From NCBI GenBank assembly GCA_016235675.1, contig JACRJN010000131.1:1779-65778 (forward strand): DNA of 64,000 nucleotides. The letters run 5' to 3'. This document shows, one piece after another, positions 4,119 to 62,222 of this stretch. The position numbers and the translations under genes were made by a program. Each line of letters begins with the position of its first letter. Position 1 is the first letter of the stretch. The notes under the pieces were generated by a model. That model saw only the letters and a program-made list of their open reading frames with translations. It searched no databases and was not told the origin of the DNA. Origin of the DNA: Candidatus Schekmanbacteria bacterium. Its GTDB lineage: Bacteria > SZUA-182.

Positions 4119-4165
4119 GTAGGGTGGGCTGCGCCCACCATTTTGATGGGCACAGCCCACCCTAC
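4119..4165. repeat. R-D doublet: GTAGGGTGGGC TGC GCCCACC ... GGGCACAGCCCACCCTAC
   Basis: Two inverted GTAG-anchored hairpins, starting 7 nt after the ntpA stop. Confidence 0.9.
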
Positions 4166-4192
4166 AGGCTACATGAAAAAAAGGGTTGCTTT

Positions 4193-4432
4193 GTGGAGAT
4201 AAATTTTTCTCGTCATGCCAAGAGAAGAGCCAGGTTATACAAAATCCCTGACTCAACAATTCTTAATCTTTTGGAATCGAAAATTTGGAACCAGGGAAAT
4301 CATGAGATTACAAAAATTGTTGCGGGGATTAAATACCCATTGAAAATTGTGTTTAATGTTGAAGACCATATTTTAACTGTAATAACTTGCTATCCTTTAA
4401 AAAAAGGAGCTAAGGGTGAAAGTATATTATGA
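4193..4432 (+). CDS. DUF4258-like small protein (putative toxin)
   Basis: INFSRHAKRRARLY ... ILTVITCYPLKK pattern. In-frame GTG at 4193 chosen because upstream codons translate the R-D repeat. Overlaps the DUF2283 gene. Confidence 0.6.
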   Translation: MEINFSRHAKRRARLYKIPDSTILNLLESKIWNQGNHEITKIVAGIKYPLKIVFNVEDHILTVITCYPLKKGAKGESIL

Positions 4433-4643
4433 CGACGAAGCAGACGCCCTTTATCTAAAATTGGGAGAAGAAACGCCGGAAGGGGTAATAGAGCTAGCCG
4501 AAGGGGTTAATCTGGACACCACTGCTGAAGATAAGATAGTAGGGATAGAAATTTTGAATGCCTCCAAGAAGATTGATTTAAAAACAATATTATCTTATAC
4601 CCTGGAGTTTGAAAAGGATTTAATAACCCAAGAAGCGGCCTGA
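4416..4643 (+). CDS. DUF2283 domain protein (putative antitoxin partner)
   Basis: 75 aa. MKVYYDDEADALYLKLGE and KIVGIEILNASKK are hallmark DUF2283 motifs. Confidence 0.8.
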   Translation: MKVYYDDEADALYLKLGEETPEGVIELAEGVNLDTTAEDKIVGIEILNASKKIDLKTILSYTLEFEKDLITQEAA

Positions 4644-4650
4644 TAGTAAC

Positions 4651-4742
4651 GTAGGGTGGGCTGTGCCCACCAAAGGCTAACCAGGGCAATTTGAACAGCG
4701 ACATATGGGCGAAAAACAAAAGGTTGGCAAAGCCCACCCTAC
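4651..4742. repeat. R-D doublet with about 50-nt spacer
   Basis: GTAGGGTGGGCTGTGCCCACC at the left end and AAGCCCACCCTAC at the right end. Confidence 0.85.
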
Positions 4743-4771
4743 ATAAATAAAACTCAAGGAGGTGAGCACCC

Positions 4772-5323
4772 ATGCAGGGTTTGGCGATAAAGCAAAAAAA
4801 ATATACTTATCAGGACTATTTAAAAACCCCGGACGATATGCGGTATGAACTAATTGAGGGAGATTTAATAATGACACCGGCGCCATATATTCGACACCAA
4901 AGAATTTCCAGTAACTTGTTTTTCAAGATGAGAGATTTCACAAGCACCAATAATTTAGGCGAGGTTTTTTACGCTCCCTGCGATGTCTACTTAGACGATG
5001 AGAATGTTGTTCAGCCGGATATACTCTTCGTTTCCAAGGAGCGTCTGGAAATTATCACGGAAAAGAATATCCAGGGTGCGCCGGATTTGGTAGTGGAAAT
5101 TGTTTCGGAAGGAAATGCTTACCGGGACACCATACAGAAAAAAAGACTATACGCCCGTTTCGGGGTGAAAGAATATTGGATAGTGGCACCGGGGGAAAAG
5201 ATGATCGAACAATATCATTTGAATAAGCAGGGTTACCAATTGATTAGGACTTATTATCATGAGGATCATCTCATATCCCAGGAATTGCAGGATTTCACGA
5301 TTGAATTGAGGGAGGTTTTTTAA
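4772..5323 (+). CDS. Uma2 family (DUF820) endonuclease
   Basis: 183 aa. YELIEGDLIMTPAP, QPDILFV and APDLVVEIVSE..YRD...K..LYARFGVKEYW motifs. Confidence 0.85.
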   Translation: MQGLAIKQKKYTYQDYLKTPDDMRYELIEGDLIMTPAPYIRHQRISSNLFFKMRDFTSTNNLGEVFYAPCDVYLDDENVVQPDILFVSKERLEIITEKNIQGAPDLVVEIVSEGNAYRDTIQKKRLYARFGVKEYWIVAPGEKMIEQYHLNKQGYQLIRTYYHEDHLISQELQDFTIELREVF

Positions 5324-5328
5324 AAAAT

Positions 5329-5386
5329 GTAGTTACCTGATTTATCAGGGAACGGCCTGCTGGTACCCGATAAATCGGGTAACTAC
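5329..5386. repeat. R-H doublet: GTAGTTACCTGATTTATCAGG ... TACCCGATAAATCGGGTAACTAC
   Basis: Inverted GTAG hairpin pair. Second copy at 25117..25172. Confidence 0.9.
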
Positions 5387-5415
5387 AAATGGCAGCATAA
5401 CACAGGAGGAATAAA

Positions 5416-6816
5416 ATGCCGAAAGAATACCGAACTGTGGCCTCGGTTTCCGGACCGTTGATTTTAGTGGACAAGGTAGAAAGCATTAAATACGAAGAAC
5501 TGGTGGAAGTGGAACTGCCCGGCGAACAAATCCGTCTGGGCAAGGTACTGGAGGTCTCAGGAAATACCGCCCTGGTGCAGCTTTTCGGTACATCTACCGG
5601 CATCAATATCTATCAGAGCAAAATTCGCTTTCTGGGCAAGGGGATTGAACTGGGGGTTTCTCCCGATTTATTGGGACGGATTTTCGACGGCCTGGGACGC
5701 CCGATCGACAATGGCCCGCGCATTATCCCGGAAAAACGCCTGAACATCAACGGGAATCCGATCAACCCCTATGCCCGCGATTATCCCTCGGAGTTTATCC
5801 AGACCGGTATTTCCACCATCGACGGCCTAAATACACTGGTGCGCGGACAAAAATTGCCCATCTTCTCAGGTGCCGGTCTCCCGCACTCCCAAATGGCGGC
5901 CCAAATCGCCCGTCAATCCAAGGTTTTGGGCAAGGAAGAAGCCTTTGCCGTGGTCTTTGCCGCCATGGGCATCACCTTTGAGGAATACGAGTTTTTCCGC
6001 CAAGATTTCCAGAAATCCGGTGCGCTGGAACGCTCGGTGCTGTTCGTCAATCTGGCCAATGACCCGGCGGTAGAACGCATCGCCACCCCGCGAATGGCCC
6101 TGACCGCCGCTGAATATCTGGCATTTGAGAAGGATATGCACGTTCTGGTTATCTTAACCGATCTGACCAATTATTGCGAAGCCCTGCGCGAGGTTTCCGC
6201 CGCCCGCAAGGAAATACCCGGTCGCCGCGGTTATCCCGGTTACATGTATACCGACCTGTCCACGATTTATGAACGCGCCGGACGCATCAAGGGCAAAAAG
6301 GGATCGATCACCCAGATTCCCATTCTTACCATGCCGGAAGATGACAAAACCCATCCCATCCCGGATTTGACCGGTTATATTACCGAGGGACAAATTATCC
6401 TGGGACGGGCGATGCACCGCAAAGGCATCTATCCCCCAATCGATGTCTTGCCGTGTCTTTCCCGCTTGCGGGATAAAGGCATCGGCGAGGGCAAGACCAG
6501 GGAAGACCACGCCGGCTGGTCGAATCAATTGTTTGCCGCCTATGCCAGGGGTAAAGAGTCTGAAGAATTGGCGGTTATATTGGGTGAATCGGCTCTATCG
6601 GCAGCCGATAAAACCTTCCTTAAATTCGCCCTGGAATTTGAGCGGCGGTTTGTACAGCAAGGGGCCTATGAAGACCGGGCTATCGAGGAAACTTTGGCTA
6701 TCGGCTGGGAATTAATGGCGGCACTTCCGAAAGCCGAACTCAAACGGGTGAAAGAGGATCATATCGCTAAATATATGCCGGCGGGGAAAGAATTAGGCTT
6801 GAGGCTTGAGGCCTGA
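5416..6816 (+). CDS. ntpB: V-type ATP synthase subunit B
   Basis: 466 aa. [21 protein letters not shown] and [21 protein letters not shown] motifs. The last codons (GLRLEA) are encoded by the GGCTTGAG tandem repeat. Confidence 0.97.
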
Positions 6817-6921
6817 GGCTTGAGTAATGAGATTTGAGGTAAAATCACAGGCAGGATGCCTGTGCTACCGTAGGGCGAATTTGTATTCGCCCTCTTTCCC
6901 TCAAGCCTCAAGTCTCAAGCC
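6796..6921. repeat. Composite palindrome: GGCTTGAG x3-4 arms enclosing an R-E hairpin and a GTAGGGCGAAT hairpin
   Basis: Left arm 6796..6824, right arm 6898..6921. Inner CACAGGCAGGATGCCTGTGCTACC and GTAGGGCGAATTTGTATTCGCCC. Confidence 0.9.
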
Positions 6922-7571
6922 TTTTTATTACAGCGATGAACCAAATTTCGGGCATTAACCCAAATTTGCTCTATCTGGGACTCGGTCAGCCCTGCGCCGA
7001 TGGCTACTTTAATGGCTTGTTCCTGCGAAATGAGGTCATCCGGTTCATGAGAGTCGGTATCAAGTATTAAAGAAGCATCTGATTTTGCGGCCAACTTGGC
7101 CACATGGCCGTTTGTCAGGGAATGTCCCTTACGGCTGGTAATTTCCAGAAAAATATGACGCTTTGCCGCCAAACGGACGTCTTCTTCGCTGATCAAACCC
7201 GGATGCGCCAATATATCGATGTCGGATTTTAAGGCATAATGATTGGTGCCAGGAACAACCGGCTCGGCTATGGTTTCCCCATGGACAACGATAATTTTAG
7301 CGCCCAGGGAGCGGGCACGGTACGCCAGATCGGGGATGAGCTTAGGCGGAACATGCGTTAATTCTATGCCGGGGATAGCGGTTATTTCCCAATGCTGATT
7401 AGCGGTTTGACAGGCTTGAATAATACGCGGGATTACAAATTCCAGGTTGGACGGATCGGCATGATCGGTCAAAGCGATGGCTTTATAGCCTTTAACGACG
7501 GCGTGGCGTATCAATTCCATCGGAAGGAGAACGCCGTCACTGAACAAAGAATGGGTATGAAAATCAAACAT
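6915..7571 (-). CDS. PHP-domain metal-dependent phosphoesterase (histidinol-phosphatase-like)
   Basis: 218 aa. FDFHTHSLFSDG and ALTDHAD motifs. Confidence 0.8.
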   Translation of the reverse strand: MFDFHTHSLFSDGVLLPMELIRHAVVKGYKAIALTDHADPSNLEFVIPRIIQACQTANQHWEITAIPGIELTHVPPKLIPDLAYRARSLGAKIIVVHGETIAEPVVPGTNHYALKSDIDILAHPGLISEEDVRLAAKRHIFLEITSRKGHSLTNGHVAKLAAKSDASLILDTDSHEPDDLISQEQAIKVAIGAGLTESQIEQIWVNARNLVHRCNKKA

Positions 7572-7573
7572 GT

Positions 7574-7933: not shown

Positions 7934-8045
7934 AGCCCTCACCGCCTTTTTAAACCCAATTAAATTATAGCATCTTACTATTTAAAATGCAATTGAAGTA
8001 GTTTGTAAAATGTATCGCAGATAACACAAAGAAAAATAATATTTT

Positions 8046-8182
8046 GGTAGCGTTCTCAATAAGAGACCTAAAGCGTCAAAAGCGAGGCAGCCTTATCGCC
8101 GAAGCAATCTCATGTGCACGCATGGAGATTGCTTCGCTTCGCTCGCAATGACGCTTCAGGTCTGCGGTATTTCTACGCTACC
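8046..8182. repeat. R-C long form: GGTAGCGTTCTCAAT...GAAGCAATCTC...GAGATTGCTTCG...CTCGCAATGAC...CTACGCTACC
   Basis: Nested palindrome of about 137 nt. Copies or cores at 9105, 33199, 34497, 40990, 50099 and 60159. Confidence 0.9.
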
Positions 8183-8250
8183 AATAATTTTACACTAAAC
8201 AGTCATGCTCCTTCAGAACGACACAAAACATGAAAACATTCCCCCCTGCC

Positions 8251-8310
8251 GTAGTGCCGGGGCTTTAGCCCCGGTAGTTCAGCCCTGAAGGGCTGGAACT
8301 ACGAAACTAC
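8251..8310. repeat. R-B type hairpins (GTAGTGCCGGGGCTTTAGCCCCGG; GTAGTTCAGCCCTGAAGGGCTGGAACTAC)
   Basis: Read directly. Ends with a tandem GAAACTAC. Confidence 0.85.
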
Positions 8311-8335
8311 GAAACACAAACAGGCATTTAGCCTT

Positions 8336-9049: not shown

Positions 9050-9104
9050 TGCTAAACTCCACTTAGTACGCGATTTTATAAATAACTAAGATTATTTTTT
9101 AAGT

Positions 9105-9183
9105 GTCATTGCGAGCTTAAGCGAAGCAATCTCTACCCATGCGTCTGAGATTGCTTCGGCGATAAGGCTGCCTCGCTTTTGAC
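9105..9183. repeat. R-C core copy
   Basis: GTCATTGCGAGCTTAAGCGAAGCAATCTC...GAGATTGCTTCGGCGATAAGGCTGCCTCGCTTTTGAC, inside a wider AT-rich inverted repeat (about 9062..9220). Confidence 0.9.
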
Positions 9184-20287: not shown

Positions 20288-20294
20288 GCTAAAA

Positions 20295-20356
20295 CCGAGA
20301 TACGAGGTACGAGATACGTAGAAAAGCATTTTCGTATCTCGTATCTCGTGCCTCGG
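20295..20356. repeat. GAGATACG tandem-unit palindrome (copy 2)
   Basis: CCGAGATACGAGGTACGAGATACG...CGTATCTCGTATCTCGTGCCTCGG. Confidence 0.9.
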
Positions 20357-20484
20357 TAATTGAGGCACTTTTCTTGCAGTAACATTGCTAACTATAAATT
20401 AACGGTACAGGCTTGTAACGGGGGGCTGGTTTTTTTCGAGCCTCGCAAGCCTGGAAACAGCAAATTTCAAACAGGAGGTTCGGA

Positions 20485-21592: not shown

Positions 21593-21815
21593 TAAGACGT
21601 AGCGCAGGGCTTTAGCCCCAATACTGTTCCCCTAACGTAGCGCAGACCTTTAGGTCTGCTCCGGAGTGCTCACAAAGCCACCCCATAAGCAGGGATAGAA
21701 GCCCTGCGCTACGTCTTAAGTGAACGGTATTGGCTTTAGCCCTGCTTCCGGACACACATCAAACCCGGTAGCCGGTAGCAGACCTAAAGGTCTGCACTAC
21801 GTTAGGGGAACAGTA
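21593..21815. repeat. R-A element whose first hairpin is interrupted by a second R-A element
   Basis: GTAG at 21599. The host hairpin GCAGG GCTTTAGCCC TGC is split. The right end is GCAGACCTAAAGGTCTGCACTAC (to 21800) plus GTTAGGGGAACAG. Confidence 0.85.
21619..21732. mobile_element. 114-nt R-A MITE-like element (TIR CAATACTGTTC.../...GAACGGTATTG) with a 10-bp target duplication
   Basis: GCTTTAGCCC at 21609..21618 and 21733..21742. Removing the element plus one duplicate restores the canonical hairpin GCAGGGCTTTAGCCCTGC. Confidence 0.8.
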
Positions 21816-21826
21816 AAGGGGCGGCT

Positions 21827-22093
21827 ATGACTAAATCAGCTTTATTCTCTTATCTTGAAGGATATAAGCTGGCTGATAAAATCATTAAAAAGGAAAAAAA
21901 ACAGCGGCTTTCTCAAATGACGTTTGAAGAATCCTTGCTTGAGTTTAATAACCTTTGCCTAACCTGGGAATCAGTTTCCAACAAAGAAGGAATGGATAAT
22001 TTGGAAAAGCGAAAAATTACCTTCCTTATCGAACAAAGAGCTCGCTTAGATAAAGCCGGCAGCCGGAAAGTGAAAAATGAATCAATACGCTAA
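21827..22093 (+). CDS. Hypothetical small protein, partner of the downstream nucleotidyltransferase-fold gene
   Basis: 88 aa. 17-nt overlap with the next ORF. No recognisable motif. Confidence 0.45.
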   Translation: MTKSALFSYLEGYKLADKIIKKEKKQRLSQMTFEESLLEFNNLCLTWESVSNKEGMDNLEKRKITFLIEQRARLDKAGSRKVKNESIR

Positions 22094-22652
22094 AGCTATC
22101 GATGAATTGCATGAATTTTTTGACCGGGAGGGAATATCTTATGCCATTATTGGAGGCATTGCTCTACAATATTGGGGAGAGCCTCGTTTTACCAGAGATA
22201 TAGACGTCACCGTTCTGGTTGATTTAGGTAAAGATGAAATAATCCTGCAAAAAATTCTTTCTGTATTCACGCCCCGCATCTCTGATGCCTTGAAATTTGC
22301 CCTGCAAAATCGTGTTTGTTTGGTTAGAAGCCGGGATGGGATCGAAATAGACATTTCTCTGGGTATTCCCGGATACGAAGAGAAAATGATGGGGCGTACG
22401 GTAGAATGTAATCTGGGCGGCAGCTATAATGTTAAGATTTGCTCGGCGGAAGACCTGATCATTCATAAAGCCGTCGCCGGAAGACCGCAGGATTTAGCTG
22501 ATATTGAGAGCATAATAATGCGCCAGGGTGAAAAATTGGATGAAGCATATATCCGTTTTTGGTTGGATGAGTTTTCTCTCTTGCTTGAAACCAAAGAAGT
22601 ATTGGAGCGGTTCGAAAATCCCTGGCGGCGGTTGCTTGGGGAAGATGAATAA
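22077..22652 (+). CDS. Nucleotidyltransferase-fold protein (AbiEii/MNT-like)
   Basis: IIGGIALQYWGEPRFTRDIDVTV matches the G(G/S)..(n)..D.D NTase signature. Confidence 0.5.
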   Translation: MNQYAKAIDELHEFFDREGISYAIIGGIALQYWGEPRFTRDIDVTVLVDLGKDEIILQKILSVFTPRISDALKFALQNRVCLVRSRDGIEIDISLGIPGYEEKMMGRTVECNLGGSYNVKICSAEDLIIHKAVAGRPQDLADIESIIMRQGEKLDEAYIRFWLDEFSLLLETKEVLERFENPWRRLLGEDE

Positions 22653-26971: not shown

Positions 26972-27031
26972 GTAGTCCCAGCCCTTCAGGGCTGATCTTC
27001 CAGGGCTAAAGCCCTGGCACTACGGCTACGG
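26972..27031. repeat. R-B doublet: GTAGTCCCAGCCCTTCAGGGCTG ... CCAGGGCTAAAGCCCTGGCACTAC(GGCTACGG)
   Basis: Lies between two 47-nt direct copies of the gene junction (26899..26945 and 27052..27098). Confidence 0.9.
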
Positions 27032-28224: not shown

Positions 28225-28428
28225 TTTTGTATTTGGTAGCACAGGCTTCTAGCCTGTGATATCATTTTCTGGTTGTCATTCCCGAATGACTTTATCGGGA
28301 ATCCAGTTCTAAAGTTCTAATTGCTTGAAAAGCCATATCCCCGATAAAGACATTCGGGGATGACAGAGTGCCTTCTCAACCAGAAAATGATATGACCTGT
28401 GATGCACAGGCTAGAAGCCTGTGCTACC
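28225..28428. repeat. Composite palindrome: R-E hairpins at both ends plus ATCATTTTCTGGTT arms, enclosing R-K (28275..28364)
   Basis: GGTAGCACAGGCTTCTAGCCTGTG ... CACAGGCTAGAAGCCTGTGCTACC. The right end supplies the stop codon of 28424..29056. Confidence 0.9.
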
Positions 28429-29068: not shown

Positions 29069-29248
29069 GTAGGGTGGACACACAGAACGGTAGCACAGGC
29101 ATCTTGCCTGTGATGTGGGCAACGCCCACACAAAAACGGTGCAATGACTGGAAGTTGTTGGGTAAATCGAAAGCTTCCATTCTATGCCGCAACACACAGG
29201 CTGGAAGCCTGTGCTACCCTACCCAATGGTGGGCACAGCCCACCCTAC
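29069..29248. repeat. Composite palindrome: outer R-D halves, inner R-E hairpins and a GTGGGCAACGCCCAC hairpin
   Basis: GTAGGGTGG...GGTAGCACAGGCATCTTGCCTGTG ... CACAGGCTGGAAGCCTGTGCTACC...GGTGGGCACAGCCCACCCTAC. Confidence 0.88.
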
Positions 29249-29870: not shown

Positions 29871-29947
29871 GGTAGCACAGGCTTCCCATCCTGTGACACA
29901 GGCAAGATGCCTGTGCTACCGGAGGCAGGGATAAAGCCCTGCGCTAC
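29871..29947. repeat. Triple-hairpin element (R-E, R-E, R-A half)
   Basis: GGTAGCACAGGCTTCCCATCCTGTG A CACAGGCAAGATGCCTGTGCTACC GGAG GCAGGGATAAAGCCCTGCGCTAC. Same architecture at 35867..35942. Confidence 0.9.
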
Positions 29948-33198: not shown

Positions 33199-33276
33199 GT
33201 CATTGCGAGGCAGCCTTATCGCCGAAGCAATCTCAGACATACGAGATTGCTTCACTCCTTCGTCGTTCGCAATGAC
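33199..33276. repeat. R-C core copy
   Basis: GTCATTGCGAGGCAGCCTTATCGCCGAAGCAATCTC...GAGATTGCTTCACTCCTTCGTCGTTCGCAATGAC. Confidence 0.9.
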
Positions 33277-33288
33277 AATTCTGAAATT

Positions 33289-34467
33289 TTAACCAATTTG
33301 CCCCTTCACCTGTACCCTGTTCTCATAAATCCGCTCAATCGCCTCACAAACCTTGATTACCTTCTCTTCCGGCAAGTGGGTAAACAAGGGCAGGCAGCAA
33401 ATCCTTTTACAAACCCAGGCGGTGGCCGGTAATTGATCCTGATATTGCTGATAATAATCTTTATAGGCGTCCTGCTCATGCACCGGGGGATAAAAATATT
33501 TTCTGGTCATGATATTTTCCGGCTTCAGGGCGGCAGATAGTTGATCGTTATTCAGACCGAATATCTCTTCATCCACCAAAACAGAGAAATAATTGTAAGA
33601 TGTGCGGGCATTGGCCTCAATCTTTTGAAAGCTTATCCCCGGCAATTTCTGCAACCTGGATTTATATAAATCTACCAGTTTATACCTGGTATTAATGCTT
33701 TCCTCTAATTTTGTCAGGCATTTACCGGCCAATAAAGCGTGCATCTCGCTCATACGGGCGTTTAAGCCGATAAACCGGGTGTTGTAGTTTCCCGGATTGC
33801 CGTAATCCCTGGCGATCTTCAGATCGGCAGCCAGTTGATCGTTATTGGTGGCGACGATCCCCCCCTCGCCGGCCACTACCAATTTGGTAGGCGCCAGGCT
33901 GAAGACCTCCGCATCTGCGAAATTCCCGGCAAATTTGCCGTGATATTTTACACCCAAAGCATGTGCCGCATCGGAAATCATTTTGAGATGATGTTTGGCG
34001 GCGATGGAGGTTAAACGATCCAGTTGCGGCGGGTTGCCGAAGATATAAACCAGCATAATGGCGCAGGTCTGCGGCGTGATTTTCTTCTCTACCTCATGCG
34101 GATCGATATTAAAGGTCTCCGGGTCGCAATCCACAAAGACCGGCTTTAAATTATTCCACAGCAGGGCATGAACCGTCGCCGGAAAGGTAAAGCTGGGGAC
34201 AATTACTTCCCCCTTCAAACCCAATAATTTCAAGCTCAACAACAAACCGGAAGTGCAACAGGAAACGGCTACCGCGTTTTTTACCTCAAGATAATCGGCG
34301 CATTCATTTTCAAAGCGTTTGACATAGCGCGCATTGGTCAGCATCCCGGAATTAAATATATCCGTTAATTCAGCGGTCAAGTCATCAACCTTCGGCAAAG
34401 TCGGCTGATTAATCGGTAATAATTGGTCGAAAGCGGGGCTGCCCCCTAAAATAGCCGGTTTTTTCAT
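33289..34467 (-). CDS. DegT/DnrJ/EryC1/StrS family sugar aminotransferase (PLP-dependent)
   Basis: 392 aa. A SLAPTK segment is the likely PLP-lysine site. Typical N-terminus ..P.I..P..P. Confidence 0.88.
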   Translation of the reverse strand: MKKPAILGGSPAFDQLLPINQPTLPKVDDLTAELTDIFNSGMLTNARYVKRFENECADYLEVKNAVAVSCCTSGLLLSLKLLGLKGEVIVPSFTFPATVHALLWNNLKPVFVDCDPETFNIDPHEVEKKITPQTCAIMLVYIFGNPPQLDRLTSIAAKHHLKMISDAAHALGVKYHGKFAGNFADAEVFSLAPTKLVVAGEGGIVATNNDQLAADLKIARDYGNPGNYNTRFIGLNARMSEMHALLAGKCLTKLEESINTRYKLVDLYKSRLQKLPGISFQKIEANARTSYNYFSVLVDEEIFGLNNDQLSAALKPENIMTRKYFYPPVHEQDAYKDYYQQYQDQLPATAWVCKRICCLPLFTHLPEEKVIKVCEAIERIYENRVQVKGQIG

Positions 34468-34496: not shown

Positions 34497-34594
34497 GGTA
34501 GCGTTTTCAACAGAAGACCAGTAGCGTCATTGCGAGCGGAGCGAAGCAATCTCCATGCGTGCGTAGAGATTGCTTCGCTTAAGCTCGCAATGAC
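34497..34594. repeat. R-C long form, right outer arm missing
   Basis: GGTAGCGTTTTCAACAGAAGACCAGTAGCGTCATTGCGAG...CTCGCAATGAC. Followed by the CCTCAAGCCTCAAGCCT fragment at 34619..34636. Confidence 0.85.
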
Positions 34595-35851: not shown

Positions 35852-37412
35852 CTAACTTCCTTCTTTGGTAGCACAGGCTGGAAGCACATGACACAGGCTG
35901 GAAGCCTGTGTTACCGGATGCAGGGCTGAAGCCCTGCGCTACACTTTTTTGCCTCCCGGTTAAAAGCCTCCCTTTAGCTTTAACAGTAATTCCGGCCATG
36001 ATCCAAAAATAAGCCGTTAATTCATTGGAAAAAAAGCGCGCTCCCGATAAATCCAATAAAAACAGGGCGATGACACAACCCAGTAGCCCGCCGGCCAGCG
36101 CCTTAATGTAGGGATCGTCCGTCTGGCGCATTACCTGCCGGGCACTAAAAAAAACAGCCGCCAAAATCCATAAATACAAAATTAACCCGACGATTCCTTC
36201 CTCGACTGCAATCCAAATAAACGAACTATGAGCCGCTTTGGGAAACGGAAGCACCCCACATCTGACCACCACTTCCTGGAATGTTTCAAAACCCGTACCC
36301 AAGATGGGGGCTTCGGCCATCATCCGCGGCAATCCTTTCCACTGGCGTAGCCTCAATTCTGTGGAATTATCGTATTGCTGATTTTCATATTTTCCCTGCA
36401 CCCCTTCTTCCAGAAAGGTATCGTCTACCCGTTCTTCTACCGCCGGCGGCGGATGCACCAAGATCACAACTAAAGCCAACAACATAAATAAAAGCAGGCG
36501 CTTATCTTTAACCAGTCCCAGGAACAAAAGACTGGCCAAACAGGCCAGCCAGGAACCGCGGGATAAGGTGGTAAACAAGGCCAGAAAACATAAACCGGTA
36601 CCCGCTAAAAGCAGGTAATGCCGTTTGGAGGGCAGTTTCAGATATAAAGAGCAAATAAATAGCGGGGTATACATAGCCAGAAAGCCGCCATATAAATTAG
36701 GCTGATCCCCGATTACCCCGCCTCCGTTTCTGTTCCGCTCGATATAATCCGCTATTCGAAAAAAATCTTTTAACGAAAGTATTACGATAATTCCGATCGT
36801 TACTAAAAGAAAAATCAACAAACGGCGGCTATAATGCAAATCGTAAGATTTTAAGGTGATGAAATATAAAGAAACATAAATAAGCCAATTTTTAGCGACA
36901 CTTAAGCGTTCAACATCCGAACAATACGCGGAAGGCATCCTGAAAATGGATAATAAAGTAAAAAATACAAGCAGATAAACAGGTATTTTTAACGGATCGC
37001 ATCTCGAATTTTCTTGCGGCTGCTTTTGGGAAAACACGCCAAGAAATAAAATGGCCACAATAATAGTTTGGGCGTTTATTCCGGTTATGCCGAAAAAATC
37101 AGGGGGAAAGAGGTCTAAAATCGGCATAAAAAAGATAAAAAAACAAACCGCTAAATCGATTCTTACAAAGGCCAAATAAGTCCAAAAAATACCCAGGGAA
37201 AACCCTAAGAAAATCTTTACCGGATAATAAGGCAAAAATATCGCGCAAATTACCGCCGCCACAAGAACCGATAAACTTGTTTTTTCAAACCGATCAACCG
37301 AAGAGACATCAGATTTGCCGGATGTTTCGGTTGGATTTAAATAATTTAATTGATACACAGGTGAAGTGTCCACAACTTTCCTCAGTGCTATGAAATACGA
37401 CAAAACTCCCAT
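35760..37412 (-). CDS. O-antigen ligase/polymerase-like (Wzy/WaaL family) polytopic membrane protein
   Basis: About 10 predicted TM helices with a large loop (SRGSWLA...). Both ends are uncertain: start alternatives at 37496 (GTG) and 37412 (ATG). The 3' end reads through the repeat and 92 nt into the next gene. Confidence 0.65.
   Translation of the reverse strand: MGVLSYFIALRKVVDTSPVYQLNYLNPTETSGKSDVSSVDRFEKTSLSVLVAAVICAIFLPYYPVKIFLGFSLGIFWTYLAFVRIDLAVCFFIFFMPILDLFPPDFFGITGINAQTIIVAILFLGVFSQKQPQENSRCDPLKIPVYLLVFFTLLSIFRMPSAYCSDVERLSVAKNWLIYVSLYFITLKSYDLHYSRRLLIFLLVTIGIIVILSLKDFFRIADYIERNRNGGGVIGDQPNLYGGFLAMYTPLFICSLYLKLPSKRHYLLLAGTGLCFLALFTTLSRGSWLACLASLLFLGLVKDKRLLLFMLLALVVILVHPPPAVEERVDDTFLEEGVQGKYENQQYDNSTELRLRQWKGLPRMMAEAPILGTGFETFQEVVVRCGVLPFPKAAHSSFIWIAVEEGIVGLILYLWILAAVFFSARQVMRQTDDPYIKALAGGLLGCVIALFLLDLSGARFFSNELTAYFWIMAGITVKAKGRLLTGRQKSVAQGFSPASGNTGFQPVSCASSLCYQRRKLDGKTKDSLYQHISGIGIYSAGDAGISQSGN
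35867..35942. repeat. Triple-hairpin element (copy 2 of the 29871 type)
   Basis: GGTAGCACAGGCTGGAAGCACATG A CACAGGCTGGAAGCCTGTGTTACC GGAT GCAGGGCTGAAGCCCTGCGCTAC. Lies inside the 3' end of ORF 35760..37496. Confidence 0.9.
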
Positions 37413-40957: not shown

Positions 40958-40989
40958 ATATTCTTTAAAACTCTAAGAAAGGTAAAAGC

Positions 40990-41067
40990 GTCATTGCGCG
41001 CGAAAGCGAAGCAATCTTCGTTCGTGCGTCTGAGATTGCTTCGGCAATAAAGCCGCCTCGCAATGAC
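40990..41067. repeat. R-C core copy
   Basis: GTCATTGCGCGCGAAAGCGAAGCAATCTTC...GAGATTGCTTCGGCAATAAAGCCGCCTCGCAATGAC. Followed by CATTATCCATTGTCAATTGTCCATTATC. Confidence 0.9.
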
Positions 41068-42544: not shown

Positions 42545-42602
42545 GTTGTCAGTTGTCAGTTGTCGGTTTTAATTCTTTAACTGACAACCGACAACTGACA
42601 AC
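42545..42602. repeat. GTTGTCA heptamer-triplet palindrome
   Basis: GTTGTCAGTTGTCAGTTGTCGGTT...AACTGACAACCGACAACTGACAAC. Confidence 0.9.
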
Positions 42603-42620: not shown

Positions 42621-42686
42621 GTAGTCCCAGCCCTTTAGGGCTGAATTTCCGGGGCTAAAGCCCCGGCACTACGGCTACGGCTACGG
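42621..42686. repeat. R-B doublet plus tandem CTACGG x3
   Basis: GTAGTCCCAGCCCTTTAGGGCTG...CCGGGGCTAAAGCCCCGGCACTACGGCTACGGCTACGG. Confidence 0.9.
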
Positions 42687-45866: not shown

Positions 45867-46103
45867 ATGATTATTAAAAAAAATATTCAAAAGGAAACAT
45901 CGTTGGAATTGCCTTGGCATTTATTAGAAAAAGCCCATCTTAAGGGGAAAATAAATATTATTGTGGAAGAAAATGAAATCCTGATTAAAAAACAAACTAA
46001 AAAATCTAAGGTTGTCGATGAAATGATCGGTCTGGGAAAGGGTATTTTTAGTGAAAACTCGCTAACTCTTCAGAAAAAAATTCGGGAGGATTGGAAACTG
46101 TGA
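45867..46103 (+). CDS. Putative VapB-type antitoxin
   Basis: 78 aa. GAGGA RBS. 13-nt overlap with the PIN gene. An AbrB-like strand pattern is suggested. Confidence 0.55.
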   Translation: MIIKKNIQKETSLELPWHLLEKAHLKGKINIIVEENEILIKKQTKKSKVVDEMIGLGKGIFSENSLTLQKKIREDWKL

Positions 46104-46531
46104 AAAGAATTGGTCTCGATACCAATATTTTTATGAGCGTTTTTTTGGAAGAAAAGGGGAAATTAGAAGCTTGCCTGGCGATTTTACAAAATATTCATGA
46201 CGGTATTCTGGAAGGGATTATCAGTGTAATTACATTAGTAGAAATAGCCGTACTTTTTTACCAAAAAAATGAATATCTAAAAGCTAAGAAAGCCTTATCC
46301 CTTATCAACTCTCTTTCAAATATTGCCATTATTGACATAACTCCACATTTGGCTTTAAAAATAGCTGCTATAAAAACTTCAGATAAATTATCTGTTGCGG
46401 ATGCAATTATTCTTGCCACAGCGGTACACGCATCTGCGGAAGCTTTTTTAACGTATGACCATGACTTTGCCAAAGTAAAAACCATCAGGTGCATTAAACC
46501 GGAAGATTATCTTCAAGAGATGAATATTTGA
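46091..46531 (+). CDS. vapC: PIN-domain ribonuclease toxin (VapC)
   Basis: RIGLDTNIFM (first acidic residue) and a downstream E. The DAIILATA and TYDHDF motifs complete the PIN acidic quartet. Confidence 0.8.
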   Translation: METVKRIGLDTNIFMSVFLEEKGKLEACLAILQNIHDGILEGIISVITLVEIAVLFYQKNEYLKAKKALSLINSLSNIAIIDITPHLALKIAAIKTSDKLSVADAIILATAVHASAEAFLTYDHDFAKVKTIRCIKPEDYLQEMNI

Positions 46532-50094: not shown

Positions 50095-50098
50095 TTTT

Positions 50099-50303
50099 GT
50101 CATTGCGAGCGACCGGAGGGAGCGAAGCAATCTCGGCGTCCGTTGCCATAACGAGATTGCTTCGCTCCGCTCGCAATGACTATCGGTTAGATATTTCGGC
50201 GTGTCCCCACGCCGAAATTATCAAGGGGTAACGTTCCCCCTTTACGGTTTCGGTGTGAGGACACACCGAAATATCAAATCACAGGCTGAAAGCCTGTGCT
50301 ACC
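50099..50303. repeat. R-C core (50099..50180), two ATTTCGGYGTG hairpins, R-E hairpin (50280..50303)
   Basis: GTCATTGCGAGCGACCGGAGGGAGCGAAGCAATCTC...CGCAATGAC. ATTTCGGCGTGTCCCCACGCCGAAAT. TTTCGGTGTGAGGACACACCGAAA. CACAGGCTGAAAGCCTGTGCTACC. Confidence 0.88.
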
Positions 50304-51372: not shown

Positions 51373-51686
51373 TTACCACGAAGGCCACAAAGCACACGAA
51401 GAAAAAATTTCGAGAGTGTTCACCTAAAGATAGATATTTATATATTTAAAAACGTAGTCCCGTGGCTTTAGCCGCGTATTTTCAGCCCCTTAGGGCTGCA
51501 AAAAAAGGTGTGTTCGTATGGAACGCGCCGAAAGTATTGAGAGTCATAATTGCAGGGCTAACGCCCTGAAGTTCAGCCCTGAAGGGCTGGGACTACGATA
51601 TTACTGGGACTACGATATTATATTGATGTTTTGGCCAATCCCCAGGCCGAAAAATTTCTTCGTGCTCTTCGTGTGCTTCGTGGTTG
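51373..51686. repeat. R-F composite: CACGAAG arms enclosing four R-B-type hairpins
   Basis: CCACGAAGGCCACAAAGCACACGAAGAA ... GTAGTCCCGTGGCTTTAGCCGCG, CAGCCCCTTAGGGCTG, GCAGGGCTAACGCCCTGA, CAGCCCTGAAGGGCTGGGACTAC ... TTCTTCGTGCTCTTCGTGTGCTTCGTGG. Confidence 0.88.
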
Positions 51687-52928: not shown

Positions 52929-52933
52929 AAAAT

Positions 52934-52994
52934 CGTTGACGGTTGACGATTGTCGGTTATTATTTTTTTAACTGACAACTGACAACCGTCAACA
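52934..52994. repeat. GTTGACG/GTTGTCA heptamer palindrome with T-rich loop (possible bidirectional terminator)
   Basis: CGTTGACGGTTGACGATTGTCGGTT ATTATTTTTTTA ACTGACAACTGACAACCGTCAACAG. Confidence 0.85.
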
Positions 52995-53005
52995 GAAATA
53001 TTACC

Positions 53006-53973: not shown

Positions 53974-53997
53974 AATCAAAAAATTGGAATCAGCAAC

Positions 53998-55320: not shown

Positions 55321-55382
55321 CAATGGACAATTGACAGTTTTTCGTTATCCATTATCCACTATCCACTATCCACTATCCATTG
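55308..55382. repeat. GGACAATTGACAAT x2 and CCACTAT heptamer x3 tracts
   Basis: CAATGGACAATTGACAATGGACAATTGACAG overlaps the stop of 53998..55320. Followed by CCATTATCCACTATCCACTATCCACTATCCATTG. Confidence 0.85.
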
Positions 55383-55399
55383 AATTAACAACAATATTT

Positions 55400-57136: not shown

Positions 57137-57138
57137 GG

Positions 57139-57265
57139 TTCACTTAAGACGTAGCGCAGGGCTTTAGCCCTGCTTATGGCGGCTTTGGTAGGCACTCCGG
57201 AGCAGACCTAAAGGTCTGCTCTACGTTAAGTGAACAGTCTGCGCTACGTTAAGTGAACAGTATTG
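57139..57265. mobile_element. R-A MITE-like element at the recJ/cytochrome junction (left TIR lacks its first 8 nt; right end partly duplicated)
   Basis: TTCACTTAAGACGTAGCGCAGGGCTTTAGCCCTGC...GCAGACCTAAAGGTCTGCTCTACGTTAAGTGAACAGT CTGCGCTACGTTAAGTGAACAGTATTG. Flanked by GGATTAAGG at 57130..57138 and 57266..57274. Confidence 0.75.
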
Positions 57266-57288
57266 GGATTAAGGAGGGGTTTGGGGGA

Positions 57289-58773: not shown

Positions 58774-59774
58774 TGACGAATGAACTTGTGTTCGGCAGTG
58801 GCAGTATCATAGGGAAGAGTAAACCCATCAGGCATCTGTTTGGTCTCATCCCTTATTTGGCTGCCCAGGAAAATCCTGTTTTGATTCAGGGCGAAAGCGG
58901 CACCGGCAAAGAGCTAGTGGCTACCGCCATACATTCTTACAGTCAGCGTTCTCTGTCGCCGCTGATTAAAGTCAACTGTTCCGCCATAGATGAAACCTAT
59001 TTAGATGTCGAGTTATTCGGCGGGGTAAAAGAAACAGGAGAGGGGAAAAAAGAGGTAGCGAAGGGGTTATTCGAAATCGCCGACGGCGGCACAATTCTCC
59101 TGGATTGTATCGATAAATTACCCCCGGCGGGACAGGAAAAGCTCTCCCAGGTAATGAGCGAACATAAAATTCACCCCTTAGGTGTTCCGGAGATTAAGAA
59201 TATTAATGTACGGGTCCTGGCCACCACAGAATCTTCTTTAGCGGAGGCTGTCGGCCAGGGGGCATTTAATGAAGGTTTATACAACCAACTGCAAAATAAT
59301 GTCATCAGTATGCCGGCACTGCGCAAATTCCGGGAAGATATACCCTTGCTTGTCAAGCACTTTGCCACTAAATACAGCAAAAAACATAATAAATCAGTAA
59401 AAGGCATTTCGGCTGAAGCCTTGTCTATCTTGATGGAATACGACTGGCCGGGGAATATCAAAGAATTAGAGGAATGTATCGAGCAGGCTGTGATCATTGA
59501 GGATTTGGAAATCATCCAGGCGCACAGTCTGCCCTATGATTTGTTCCATACGGCGGAAAGCGCCCGTCATCGCCTGGCGGAGGAATATAATCTGCGCCGC
59601 CGCTTGAAGGCATTCGAGCGTCAATTGATCTTGCGCGCTTTAAACGAAACCAAATGGAAGAAGAAAGAAGCCGCTCAGTTAATGGGCATCGATCAGCGCA
59701 ATTTGAGCTATTTCTTAAGAAAGCATCACATTACCGATCCGGCCACCAGGGAAAAAGAGCGCGGGTATCTATAG
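58773..59774 (+). CDS. Sigma54-activator-like AAA+ / Fis-HTH protein with degenerate catalytic and sigma54-contact motifs, no N-terminal sensor domain
   Basis: GESGTGKE Walker A is intact. Walker B is GGTILLDCI (Cys in place of Glu). ELFGGVKETGEGKK replaces ELFGHEKGAFTGA. FNEGLYNQL replaces FRxDLxxRL. WPGNIKELEE and the C-terminal HTH are present. Confidence 0.8.
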   Translation: MTNELVFGSGSIIGKSKPIRHLFGLIPYLAAQENPVLIQGESGTGKELVATAIHSYSQRSLSPLIKVNCSAIDETYLDVELFGGVKETGEGKKEVAKGLFEIADGGTILLDCIDKLPPAGQEKLSQVMSEHKIHPLGVPEIKNINVRVLATTESSLAEAVGQGAFNEGLYNQLQNNVISMPALRKFREDIPLLVKHFATKYSKKHNKSVKGISAEALSILMEYDWPGNIKELEECIEQAVIIEDLEIIQAHSLPYDLFHTAESARHRLAEEYNLRRRLKAFERQLILRALNETKWKKKEAAQLMGIDQRNLSYFLRKHHITDPATREKERGYL

Positions 59775-59829
59775 CAGGACAGGCGTCCCGCCGGAAATTA
59801 TAAAATATTGTAGGGGCGGGGGTTTCCCC

Positions 59830-59966
59830 CAATGCTGTTGACTTAAGACGTAGCGCAGGGCTTTAGCCCTGCTTAAGACGCGGCATTTGACCCCTGTGGC
59901 TGTAGCAGACCTAAAGGTCTGCGCTACATAAACATCAAAACAAAATTCCTTAAGTCAACAGCATTG
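59830..59966. mobile_element. 137-nt R-A MITE-like element (TIR CAATGCTGTTGACTTAAGACGTAGCGCAG / ...CTTAAGTCAACAGCATTG) inserted in the loop of a GTAG hairpin
   Basis: 11-bp direct duplication GGGGTTTCCCC at 59819..59829 and 59967..59977. The host hairpin GTAGGGGCGGGGG TTT CCCCGCCC spans 59810..59981. Confidence 0.8.
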
Positions 59967-59996
59967 GGGGTTTCCCCGCCCTTTAATTAACTTAAG

Positions 59997-60057
59997 CCGT
60001 AGCCGTAGTGCCAGGGCTTTAGCCCTGGAAATTCAGCCCTAAAGGGCTTTAGACTAC
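59997..60057. repeat. R-B doublet with tandem CCGTAG x2
   Basis: CCGTAGCCGTAGTGCCAGGGCTTTAGCCCTGG...CAGCCCTAAAGGGCTTTAGACTAC. Confidence 0.9.
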
Positions 60058-60069
60058 GAAATTTAAGAG

Positions 60070-60410
60070 CTTATCCGTAAATAACCGTTACCTTTGGTTT
60101 CCCCCTTTAGCAAAGGGGGATTAAGGGGGATTTGCAAATTGTAATTTCCATAAAGAATTTGGCAGCGTTCTCAATCAGAGACCCAAAGCGTCATTGCGAG
60201 GCAGCCTTATCGCCGAAGCAATCTCATCCACACGCATGGAGATTGCTTCGCTTCGCTCGCAATGACACTTCGGAGTCTCCCTATTTCTACGCTACCAAGA
60301 ATTTAATCTTTTAACAATATGTCGTGTTCGAATAATTCTTAAGGTTAGATTCAATTTGAAAATCTCCCCAACCCCTCTTTGCCAAAGAGGGAAAAGTTAT
60401 TTACGGATAT
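60070..60410. repeat. R-I element (CTTATCCGTAAATAAC arms, CCCCCTTTAGCAAAGGGGG / CCCTCTTTGCCAAAGAGGG hairpins) interrupted by an R-C long-form copy at 60159..60298
   Basis: An uninterrupted R-I relative lies at about 31540..31660. The R-C copy runs TTGGCAGCGTTCTCAAT...CTACGCTACCAA. Confidence 0.8.
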
Positions 60411-60521
60411 ATTCTAAGTCTTTCTATTTCTACGCGACAATTTTTAAATAAATATTCTCTGTGTCTCAGTGGCTCTGTGTGAAAAATTTCTCCTGAATTT
60501 TAATTTAGCACCTACCCCATT

Positions 60522-61490
60522 ATGAAAATAATCTTTTGTGGCACGCCGGAATTTGCCCTCCCCAGCTTAAATACCCTACTGACGTCCAAACATCAGGTTT
60601 TGGCGGTGATTACCCCACCCGATCGCCCCGCAGGCCGGGGTAAAAAGCTCAAACCCTCTGCAATTAAGGAAGCCGCCTCAACTCATAATTTACCCATCTT
60701 GCAGCCGGGAAAAATCGGATCGGCGGATTCGCTGGAAAGCATGCGGCAATTGAATCCCGACGCCTTGGCAGTTGTCGCCTTCGGACAACTTCTCCCCCCC
60801 CCGGTACTGAATTTACCCCGCTACGGATGCATCAATGTCCATGCCTCCCTGCTTCCCAAATACCGGGGAGCGGCTCCCATCAATTGGGCGATCATCCGGG
60901 GGGAAACCCAAACCGGGGTCTGCACCATGCGGCTGGATAAAGGGATGGACACCGGCGATGTTATCTTATGCAAGGCTGTCGATATTAGGTCGGAGGAAAC
61001 CGCCGGAACATTACACGACAAGCTGGCCCCGCTGGGCGCGCAATTATTAGCGGAAACATTGGATCAGATCGAAGCGAATACCGCGCTTTATCATCCTCAA
61101 GACCATAACTCGGCCACCTATGCGCCGCTCTTGGATAAATCGATTACCATCATCGACTGGAAACAAAGCGCCGAACAAATCGACTGCCTGGTGCGCGGGT
61201 TAAATCCCTATCCCGGAGCAAAAACATTTTTGGACGATCTGCCGCTGAAAATTCTTACGGTGGAAATCAGCAAGCTAGCTAGCCCGGCCCTACCGGGACA
61301 AATAATTCAGCAAAATCGACGGCAGGGAATTTTAGTCGCGACAGGCAGCGCTCCCATTTGGCTGAAAACAATTCAGCCGGCCAACCGCCAGCCTATGACC
61401 AGTGGCGATTTTCTTTCCGGATTGCGTGAGTCTTTAATAAATAAGGAATTCCGTAGTCCCAGCCCTTTAGGGCTGAATCTCCAGGGCTAA
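60522..61490 (+). CDS. fmt: Methionyl-tRNA formyltransferase
   Basis: 322 aa. MKIIFCGTPEFA, INVHASLLPKYRGAAPI (SLLP) motif. The last ~12 codons and the stop lie inside an R-B doublet. Confidence 0.93.
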   Translation: MKIIFCGTPEFALPSLNTLLTSKHQVLAVITPPDRPAGRGKKLKPSAIKEAASTHNLPILQPGKIGSADSLESMRQLNPDALAVVAFGQLLPPPVLNLPRYGCINVHASLLPKYRGAAPINWAIIRGETQTGVCTMRLDKGMDTGDVILCKAVDIRSEETAGTLHDKLAPLGAQLLAETLDQIEANTALYHPQDHNSATYAPLLDKSITIIDWKQSAEQIDCLVRGLNPYPGAKTFLDDLPLKILTVEISKLASPALPGQIIQQNRRQGILVATGSAPIWLKTIQPANRQPMTSGDFLSGLRESLINKEFRSPSPLGLNLQG

Positions 61491-61504
61491 AGCCCTGGCA
61501 CTAC
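61453..61504. repeat. R-B doublet overlapping the fmt 3' end
   Basis: GTAGTCCCAGCCCTTTAGGGCTG AATCT CCAGGGCTAAAGCCCTGGCACTAC. The fmt stop TAA is in the second loop. Confidence 0.9.
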
Positions 61505-61555
61505 GACTGACAATGGACAACGAATTCATTATCCATTCAATAATGGAGAGCCCTC

Positions 61556-62155
61556 ATGAATTACATAGTAGCAATCAGCGGAGCCAGCGGAGCAATCTAC
61601 GCCCAACGATTGCTGCAAGCCCTGGCGCAGGAAGGCGCCCGGATCCAACTTATCATCAGCGATACTGCCCGCCTGGTGATCAAGCACGAACTGGGGATAG
61701 AACTAGCGGCTGACCCCACCGCCCAAAAAGCGATCATTGCTGAACAAATTCTGGGCAAGTCCGATTATCCCCATTTACACATCCACGCCATCGACAACCT
61801 GGCGGCCTCCATCGCCAGCGGCACAGCACCGATAGACGCCATGATCGTTCTTCCCTGCTCCATGGGCACACTCTCCCGCATCGCTCACGGCATTTCCGGC
61901 AACCTGATCGAACGCTCCGCCGACGTCGCCCTGAAAGAAAAACGCCCATTAATCTTAGCCCCCCGCGAAACACCCCTAAACACAATTCACCTGCGCAACA
62001 TGCTGGAATTATCCCAAGCCGGAGCGCAAATCATCCCCTGCATGCCAGCTTTCTACCACTGCCCTAAGCAAATCAACGACTTGATTGATTTTGTAGTCGG
62101 CAAGATTCTGGATGCGTTGAAAATCGATCATCAATTGTTTAAGCGCTGGGAATGA
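61556..62155 (+). CDS. ubiX: Flavin prenyltransferase UbiX
   Basis: 199 aa. VAISGASGAIYAQRLL and PCSMGTLS motifs. Confidence 0.9.
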   Translation: MNYIVAISGASGAIYAQRLLQALAQEGARIQLIISDTARLVIKHELGIELAADPTAQKAIIAEQILGKSDYPHLHIHAIDNLAASIASGTAPIDAMIVLPCSMGTLSRIAHGISGNLIERSADVALKEKRPLILAPRETPLNTIHLRNMLELSQAGAQIIPCMPAFYHCPKQINDLIDFVVGKILDALKIDHQLFKRWE

Positions 62156-62168
62156 TTTCTCGAATAAC

Positions 62169-62222
62169 GTAGTCTAAAGCCCTTTAGGGCTGAACCTCCA
62201 GGGCTAAAGCCCCGGCACTATG
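62169..62222. repeat. R-B doublet (right anchor degenerate: CACTAT)
   Basis: GTAGTCTAAAGCCCTTTAGGGCTG AACCT CCAGGGCTAAAGCCCCGGCACTAT. Confidence 0.85.

Follow-up and report, generated by a model that had tools for sequence, protein, structure and literature searches.

GTAG-anchored palindromic repeats of Candidatus Schekmanbacteria, very probably REP and REPIN elements dependent on a RAYT transposase

The spaces between the genes of a 64-kb stretch of Candidatus Schekmanbacteria DNA (contig JACRJN010000131.1; this whole stretch is called here the window) are crowded with short palindromes that begin with the tetranucleotide GTAG, which raises the question of what these palindromes are and how they spread. 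Our analyses indicate that they are very probably repetitive extragenic palindromic (REP) sequences of the GTAG superfamily, mostly arranged as the inverted doublets known as REPINs, and that they would be moved by a REP-associated tyrosine transposase (RAYT) probably encoded elsewhere in the genome. REP/REPIN systems and their features are already known, and what is new is the host.

We scanned the window with a strict pattern (GTAG, 0-3 nt, a perfect stem of 6-10 bp and a loop of 3-6 nt), which retrieved 48 perfect units, 24 on the plus and 24 on the minus strand. A relaxed scan, allowing one mismatch or G-T pair, gave 57 matches, which correspond to ca. 50 distinct units after the removal of four palindromes matched on both strands and three chance-like matches; the total nears 60, the number proposed in a first-pass annotation of the window, only when copies with a mutated GTAG are added. 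Units are 20-26 nt long, with perfect GC-rich stems of 6-9 bp and a loop of 3-5 nt, mostly TTTA or TTCA; the anchor is usually CGTAG and is separated from the stem by 0-3 nt. All twelve units quoted in that annotation are present, although the one with the CACAGGC stem starts at 28236 and not at 28226.

Perfect hairpins are frequent in the window, with 182 versus 83 ± 10 in 30 dinucleotide shuffles. Their association with the anchor greatly exceeds that of the shuffled controls: GTAG occurs up to 7 nt 5′ of 33 perfect hairpins (0.3 in shuffles) and CTAC occurs 3′ of 37 (0.7 in shuffles), that is, 70 footed hairpins together against about one. GTAG stands just 5′ of the stem in every one of the 25 perfect TTYA-loop hairpins, 18 times as CGTAG; of the 11 remaining permutations of these four letters, ten never occur at that place, and the eight occurrences of AGTG are attributed to overlapping GTAGTG contexts. 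Covariation was evaluated on sites picked by the pattern GTAG N6-11 TTYA alone, which does not demand pairing. Watson-Crick pairs occupied 260 of 385 stem cells, versus 138 ± 10 (maximum 170) when the 3′ arms were shuffled, and most of the seven stem positions showed three or four types of pair, so the stems do covary, as had been suggested. The claim of at least ten stem alleles also holds, because the window contains at least 14 distinct perfect stems.

The units share anchor, spacing and loop, and define families that differ in the stem. Family A has stems GCAGGGC (A1) and GCAGACC (A2); family B, CAGCCC (B1) and CCRGGGC (B2); family C, GGTGGGC with a TGY loop; family D, CACAGGCW; family E, TACCYGA; and family F has the G-rich stems GCGGGGG, GTTGGGG and ACGGGGG with a TTTAT loop. 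A single GGCGAAT unit lies outside these families. Most units belong to some 20 inverted doublets, with GTAG outermost on each strand and a linker of 2-150 nt. The typical layout is a left-type REP, whose apical stem ends in GGC, followed by the linker and an inverted right-type REP ending in ACC or CCC. A doublet on a single strand can fold either into a pair of hairpins or into a single long one, which is interrupted by small mismatches at the positions in which the two stems are unlike, and the seven doublets that we folded showed z values from -3.7 to -8.2. Both orientations relative to the genes were found.

Units are nearly all intergenic and occur in unidirectional or convergent gaps. 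The earlier statement that almost every gap carries them was too strong: they occupy 18 of the 31 gaps of at least 60 bp, plus one gap of 47 bp, and neither of the two divergent gaps, and the gaps devoid of GTAG units hold other repeat families. Their density across the window (0.89 scan matches per kb) compares with a median of 0.375 per kb in 110 comparison loci that were themselves chosen for holding the repeat; it is thus high for the window, and one window cannot stand for the whole genome. A search of the window against Rfam retrieved only a transfer-messenger RNA (tmRNA). A cyanobacterial origin was rejected, since the window has a single HIP1 site and its leucyl-tRNA synthetase is that of a Candidatus Schekmanbacteria genome. 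A full-text literature search for the repeat-unit sequence found no paper, and a literature search found none linking Schekmanbacteria with palindromes.

This architecture is that of the published GTAG-tagged REPs. The GTAG superfamily comprises 24 families and, together with the CGTC-tagged REPs, spans more than 80 species from eight phyla (PMC3733652). Its members have stems of 6-13 bp and include sub-families with complementary stem changes; several families can coexist in a genome, each with its own REPtron (a RAYT gene with its flanking REPs); they form head-to-head dimers with spacers of 20-100 bp, as well as heterodimers and hybrid dimers; and they favour unidirectional and convergent gaps, with intragenic copies that include tRNA synthetase genes (PMC3733652). 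The window thus shares with this superfamily, which includes the SMAG repeats of S. maltophilia, the 5′ GTAG, the stems, the dimers and heterodimers, the gap preference, the intragenic copies and, as described below, the flanking of RAYT genes. It differs in that the phylum lies outside the published survey, in a higher local density and in loops mostly of 4 nt (TTTA or TTCA) versus 2-3 bp in many published families (PMC3733652); the window families were likened to the 24 published ones by their described features. Likewise, group 3 REPs, such as those of the S. maltophilia and Marinomonas REPtrons, are short perfect palindromes, as in the window (PMC8266576). The REP/BIME elements of E. coli, served by TnpAREP (structure 4ER8), also have GTAG 5′ of the hairpin, but are longer and need a bulge. 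The dependence of RAYTs on the tetranucleotide, invoked in the first-pass annotation, is well founded, since cleavage by TnpAREP requires GTAG in vitro (PMC8266576).

The REPIN-RAYT systems of Pseudomonas and Enterobacteria likewise have inverted REP doublets forming a long hairpin, which is there the replicating unit (PMC5581495). In those systems, and in the RAYT loci described below, the flanks of the RAYT gene match dispersed repeats. Highly abundant flanking 16-mers were found there only for RAYT groups 2 and 3 (PMC5581495), and CGTC repeats show no association with transposase genes (PMC3733652).

We searched a species-representative genome collection for the exact 23-mer of the A1 unit, GTAGCGCAGGGCTTTAGCCCTGC, and found it in more than 110 stretches at least, since the matches are a lower bound. 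Among the matches listed, its hosts are metagenome-assembled genomes (MAGs) with 34-70% GC from Acidobacteriota, Desulfobacterota, Actinomycetota, Nitrospirota, Brocadiales, Dehalococcoidia, WOR-3 and others, and the 23-mer is in most cases accompanied by an inverted unit that ends in CTAC. In two unrelated MAGs the A1 repeat flanks a Y1_Tnp (PF01797) gene. In the first, a Desulfobacteraceae (L097), repeats lie just 5′ of the start codon, with one more downstream; in the second, an Acidobacteriota with 70% GC (L075), three direct GCAGGGC units lie upstream and two inverted GCAGCCC units downstream of the gene. Their products score 106-111 bits on the NCBIfam model NF047646, ‘REP-associated tyrosine transposase’ (cut-off 80), versus 28 bits on the IS200 model (cut-off 55), and their best match among solved structures is 4ER8, above the IS200/IS605 TnpA structures. 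In these RAYTs the two histidines of PDHLHLL vary little or not at all, and a tyrosine lies within the conserved LWQxNYYEH. The RAYT clade, with members in Desulfobacterota, Planctomycetota, Acidobacteriota, WOR-3 and similar groups, matches the group 2 structure weakly (E = 5.5e-11).

Using an alignment of 35 RAYTs of this clade, we retrieved 80 metagenomic RAYT loci. GTAG hairpins occur within 300 nt of the RAYT gene in 72 of them, and on both sides in 55, with the same grammar as in the window: GTAG, 0-2 nt, a stem of 7-9 bp and a TTTA or TTCA loop. The identity of the RAYTs correlates with that of their upstream REPs (r = 0.35; the maximum in 500 permutations was 0.16). In one locus (L164) an exact A1+A2 doublet directly follows the RAYT gene; this RAYT and two relatives that are 77-79% identical to it share one chromosomal site, between metF and pmbA/tldD, which would fit published accounts of RAYTs as single-copy genes that behave like housekeeping genes (PMC5581495, PMC8266576). 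In the two contigs scanned (L196 and L197), REP-type GTAG hairpins were found only around the RAYT gene, and these genomes therefore have the REPtron without a dense dispersed population. A Brocadia RAYT lies between GTAG-G-GCAAGGC-TTTA and a GCAAAGC unit in inverted orientation, and family C recurs as a doublet in Scalindua rubra. Together with the match to the published superfamily, the repeats at 72 of 80 loci, A1 at two RAYT genes and the correlation of enzyme with repeat sustain the original description of the units as REP/REPIN-like sequences with a cognate RAYT.

In several of these RAYT genes (904-1482 in L097; also P0006, P0012, P0014 and P0094), a copy of the gene's own repeat is read in frame at one loop. 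The peptide VAQGFSPA is the translation of GTAGCGCAGGGCTTTAGCCCTGC in this loop, and the proteins are longer by 12 to about 60 residues.

The RAYT loci also bear on the doublets themselves. Left and right stems differ in 45 of 50 RAYT loci with repeats on both sides, the left apices being mostly (A/G)GGC and the right ones often ACCC, AACC or GACC. This is the same relation as between A1 and A2, and between B2 and B1, in the window, whose two-allele doublets therefore look like REPtrons without the gene. The first-pass annotation had singled out three features as unusual: the number of coexisting alleles, the doublets built from two alleles and the density. The density does stand out; coexisting families and heterodimers had already been published (PMC3733652), and thus two of the three points are standard, differing stems being the rule in this RAYT clade.

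In A1 matches and RAYT-locus flanks alike, partner units differ chiefly in the three apical base pairs of their stems. Because of this, and of the low identity among the RAYTs, the occurrence of identical 23-mers in different phyla probably reflects an old clade in which few sequences are permitted, which is a simpler inference than recent transfer. Recent transfer is unsupported, the RAYTs with identical upstream REPs being as little as 39-53% identical. As for horizontal spread by phage, the exact A1 23-mer was found, in some cases two or three times, in eleven IMG/VR contigs classed as viral (L202-L212), none of which encodes a RAYT.

Modelled on the systems of E. coli, S. maltophilia and Marinomonas, a plausible mechanism would start with the folding of a unit into a hairpin on single-stranded DNA; REP substrates are cleaved only when single-stranded, and the inverted copy is not a substrate (PMC8266576). 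A single-copy Y1-HUH transposase (RAYT/TnpAREP) supplied from elsewhere in the genome would bind this hairpin, with GTAG needed for cleavage, and would then cut and rejoin the strand, thereby copying or moving the doublet, in trans, to a site between genes. Separate RAYTs would serve separate stem families, and the transcribed hairpins may secondarily stabilise or end transcripts.

The structure of the leucyl-tRNA synthetase (LeuRS) gene (16335-18923, minus strand) may point to such movement. Its product, 100% identical to MBI5789077.1 from a Candidatus Schekmanbacteria MAG, has an in-frame insertion of 37 residues (16881-16991) between the catalytic and the anticodon-binding parts, with an A2+A1 doublet as its core. 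The insertion is missing from the nearest homologues (67-68% identical), from more distant aligned ones (down to 60%) and from the E. coli LeuRS, and the contigs that carry its two nearest relatives showed no GTAG hairpins of this type. Tolerated in-frame insertion into genes is also known from the Rickettsia palindromic elements (RPE); the intragenic repeats of R. conorii, counted as CGTC repeats and equated with RPE-4 and RPE-6 (PMC3733652), differ from the GTAG units of the window. In addition, doublets sit inside other inverted repeats or interleave with each other; unique inverted repeats of 23-29 nt enclose an F doublet (16207-16229/16308-16330) and an A doublet (59819-59847/59949-59977), and this suggests that doublets often lie within loops of other hairpin-forming sequences. 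The insertion in LeuRS, the nested and interleaved copies and the bare contigs of the relatives may all be taken as signs of insertion.

Several observations weigh against a RAYT acting on these units. We found no RAYT in the window either by tblastn or with a profile of 95 RAYTs on the six-frame translation, as the first-pass annotation had stated, and no Schekmanbacteria-named RAYT appears among the homologues listed in two RAYT searches. For families B-F, no copy was seen flanking a RAYT gene, only related stems. Since RAYTs with identical upstream REPs can be so divergent, a shared REP alone does not identify its enzyme. In many degenerate copies the anchor is mutated, or the unit is cut short or imperfect, and part of the population may therefore be inactive, and mobility is deduced from comparison alone. 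We nonetheless infer that the Schekmanbacteria genome probably encodes the RAYTs and that the elements may still be mobile.

The best-surviving alternative, which we consider unlikely, is that this is a relic population of REPs and REPINs whose RAYTs are lost and whose repeats decay or persist for host functions. This would agree with the lack of a RAYT in the window, with the degenerate copies (19171, 35892, 62169, 21599 and 14557) and with the documented loss of REPtrons, as in many E. coli strains (PMC3733652). However, most stems are still perfect, several doublets are 86-93% identical to a reference copy, the density is above that of loci from RAYT-bearing genomes, and a sample of 64 kb is expected to miss single-copy genes.

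It is much less probable that the units are only host-selected structures (sites of protein binding, terminators or stabilisers of transcript 3′ ends) that arise and persist through selection or gene conversion, with no part for a transposase. Their location, mostly downstream of genes and in neither of the two divergent gaps, would suit such roles, which have been reported for REPs in the literature. Nevertheless, the units are not classical intrinsic (Rho-independent) terminators, because only 6 of 54 units are followed by a T run (at least 4 T in the 12 nt beyond the 3′ end of the stem). Doublets also occur in both orientations relative to genes, in frame within coding sequence and nested in other repeats, and the same grammar is tied to RAYT genes; host roles are compatible with RAYT-mobilised REPs, and secondary to them. 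Other mobile DNA, namely miniature inverted-repeat elements of DDE transposons, autonomous IS200/IS605 ends or integron attC sites, can be virtually discarded: the outer inverted flanks TTCACTTAAC / GTTAAGTGAA of family A do resemble RYYYAAC / GTTRRRY, and some doublets bracket small gene cassettes (e.g. 4119-4742), but these flanks are confined to family A and variable even there, and the neighbours are housekeeping genes in both orientations, two points that speak against attC sites; the window has no tnpA or other Y1 transposase gene, as an autonomous IS200/IS605 element would have between its hairpins, and the doublet linkers measure 2-150 nt; the families have GTAG and a hairpin in common, rather than terminal inverted repeats flanked by target duplications; and the grammar is directly linked to RAYT genes. 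IS200/IS605 elements are also mobilised by Y1-HUH enzymes acting on single-stranded hairpins, and their left and right hairpins are similar and not identical, as in the REPtrons; they differ in that the window doublets lack a transposase gene and in the scores of the RAYTs on the two models.

A more far-reaching version of the REP/RAYT reading is tentative and rather doubtful. It would hold that the RAYTs form a distinct multi-phylum clade whose dispersed elements are obligate left/right heterodimers, in effect miniature REPtrons with distinguishable ends like those of IS200/IS605; that few stems are permitted, giving identical 23-nt units at 34-70% GC despite RAYTs only ca. 40-50% identical; that the density in Schekmanbacteria is above that of any reported REP-rich genome; and that insertion occurs preferentially into the loops of hairpin repeats, even in frame in an essential gene.

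Table 1. GTAG units and doublets of the window, ordered by stem family. D and I numbers designate repeat families and inverted repeats, respectively.
Feature	Position	Strand	Details
Family A doublet	16008-16103		GTAG-C-GCAGGGC-TTTA-GCCCTGC, 30-nt linker, GCAGACC-TAAA-GGTCTGC-A-CTAC; flanks TTCACTTAAC / GTTAAGTGAA; folds as a single long hairpin, -29.4 kcal/mol, z = -7.0
Family A doublet in LeuRS gene, in frame	16891-16946	minus	Read on minus strand; fold z = -5.2
Composite, two interleaved family A doublets	21599-21822		Truncated A1, A2...A1′, A2; inverted repeats I1, I15
Family A doublet with outer flanks and 23-nt tandem duplication of right end	57141-57264		Repeat families D9, D14; folded
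Family A doublet (59850-59927) inside 29-nt inverted repeat	59819-59977		Inverted repeat I9
Lone family A unit adjoining family D pair	29925-29947	minus	Strict and relaxed scans
Lone family A unit, TTCA loop	35920-35942	minus	3′ end of Wzy-like open reading frame (ORF); repeat family D7
Degenerate family D unit, GTAA for GTAG	35892-35914		Beside family A unit 35920-35942
Family B doublet	8251-8302		GTAG-TG-CCGGGGC-TTTA-GCCCCGG, then CAGCCC-TGAA-GGGCTG-GAA-CTAC; repeat families D2, D18
Family B doublet, B1 CAGCCC and B2 CCAGGGC	26972-27023		Two-hairpin fold, z = -3.7; repeat family D3
Family B doublet	42621-42672		Strict scan; repeat family D3
Family B doublet, right unit imperfect	60005-60057		Strict scan; repeat family D2
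Family B doublet overlapping 3′ end of formyltransferase ORF	61453-61504		Repeat family D3
Degenerate family B doublet, right anchor now CTAT	62169-62222		Repeat family D3
Long B-like composite between GTAG and CTAC	14451-14612		Repeat family D2
Long B-like composite nested in inverted CACGAAG arrays (51375-51404 / 51655-51684)	51454-51596		Inverted repeat I12
Family C doublet	4119-4165		GTAG-GGTGGGC-TGC-GCCCACC ... CTAC; fold -21 kcal/mol, z = -8.2
Family C doublet	4651-4742		With 4119-4165 brackets small-ORF (DUF2283) cassette; inverted repeats I16, I18, I22
Family C doublet nested in inverted CACGAAG-type arrays (11886-11919 / 12059-12092)	11952-12024		Inverted repeats I4, I17
Lone family C unit	29228-29248	minus	Strict and relaxed scans
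Tail-to-tail pair between convergent genes	6846-6891		Family D 6846-6868 (minus) and GGCGAAT unit 6870-6891 (plus); I23
Lone family D unit	14384-14406	plus	Relaxed scan; repeat family D19
Two family D units	28236-28427		GTAG-CACAGGCT-TCT-AGCCTGTG; 25 nt 100% complementary; bracket another palindromic repeat; I10, I13
Two inverted family D units	29090-29217		5′ end of PglD-like ORF; inverted repeat I24
Family D doublet, units adjacent	29872-29919		Relaxed scan
Lone family D unit	50280-50302	minus	Strict and relaxed scans
Family E doublet	5329-5386		GTAG-T-TACCTGA-TTTA-TCAGG... / TACCCGA; inverted repeat I14
Family E doublet	25117-25172		Fold z = -7.1; inverted repeat I11
Family F doublet (ACGGGGG-TTTAT / CGGGAG-TTCAT)	16242-16304		Nested in 23-nt inverted repeat 16207-16229 / 16308-16330; I25
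Family F doublet, left anchor mutated to GTCG	19171-19245		5′ part of patatin ORF, before domain; repeat families D8, D11
Family F doublet (GTTGGGG / GCGGGGG, TTTAT loop)	43477-43557		Fold z = -4.5

Other repeats accompany the GTAG units (Table 1). Short arrays, each of three tandem units of 7-9 nt (NNCACGAAG, CCACGGAAG, GTTGTCA, GAGATAC or AGGCTTG), form inverted pairs that bracket intergenic segments, at 11886-11919/12059-12092, 51375-51404/51655-51684, 53550-53578/53946-53974, 31487-31518/31672-31703, 6802-6824/6900-6922, 20294-20357, 42545-42602 and 52929-53005, and a GTAG doublet is nested within several of these pairs. CTTCGTG arrays also lie beside the repeats in two Vicinamibacterales loci (L009 and L069). 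A second palindromic family, unrelated and without GTAG (GTCATTGCGAG...GAAGCAATCTC...GAGATTGCTTC...CTCGCAATGAC), has about seven copies (ca. 8076-8200, 9101-9176, 33199-33290, 34520-34590, 40986-41061, 50098-50180 and 60190-60304), and its motifs also appear in a few loci of other phyla. A third family (GTCATTCCCGAATGAC...ATCCCCGATAAAGACATTCGGGGATGAC) occurs at 12881-12981 and 28274-28365, with two family D units on either side of one of its copies.

The genes of the window are of housekeeping type, and include a V-type ATPase operon, LeuRS, polysaccharide synthesis genes and tmRNA. Within the V-type ATPase operon, the segment 4119-5386 separates subunits A and B; it contains the DUF2283 cassette bracketed by two family C doublets, then a gene for a Uma2-family endonuclease and an E doublet. 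The V-type ATPase operon of Brocadia sinica is interrupted by nucleotidyltransferase, RAYT, ParA-like and other genes. The tmRNA gene (62293-62660; tag peptide ANYYGESQLALAA) directly follows a degenerate B doublet. Tandem 120-nt repeats at 14854-15453 belong to a gene for a TPR-repeat protein and represent ordinary repeat-protein structure. Small genes of toxin-antitoxin or defence type (DUF5615/PIN-like, AbiEii-like nucleotidyltransferase and PIN domain protein) are located at 1-950, 22077-22652 and 46091-46531.

With the identification of these units, the range of REP/REPIN-RAYT biology now includes a candidate phylum known from metagenomes alone, and the general picture of REPs is left unchanged. 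One REP grammar, and even one exact 23-mer, is common to many phyla; these repeats are therefore useful markers and also call for caution in annotation, as ORFs are made longer by them, small spurious ORFs arise from them and one doublet lies within an essential gene. The difference between left and right stems at RAYT genes offers a simple explanation for the frequent REP heterodimers, left open in PMC3733652. This asymmetry of the REPtron ends behind heterodimers, and the nesting of doublets in other hairpin-forming repeats, are the leads that emerge from the window.

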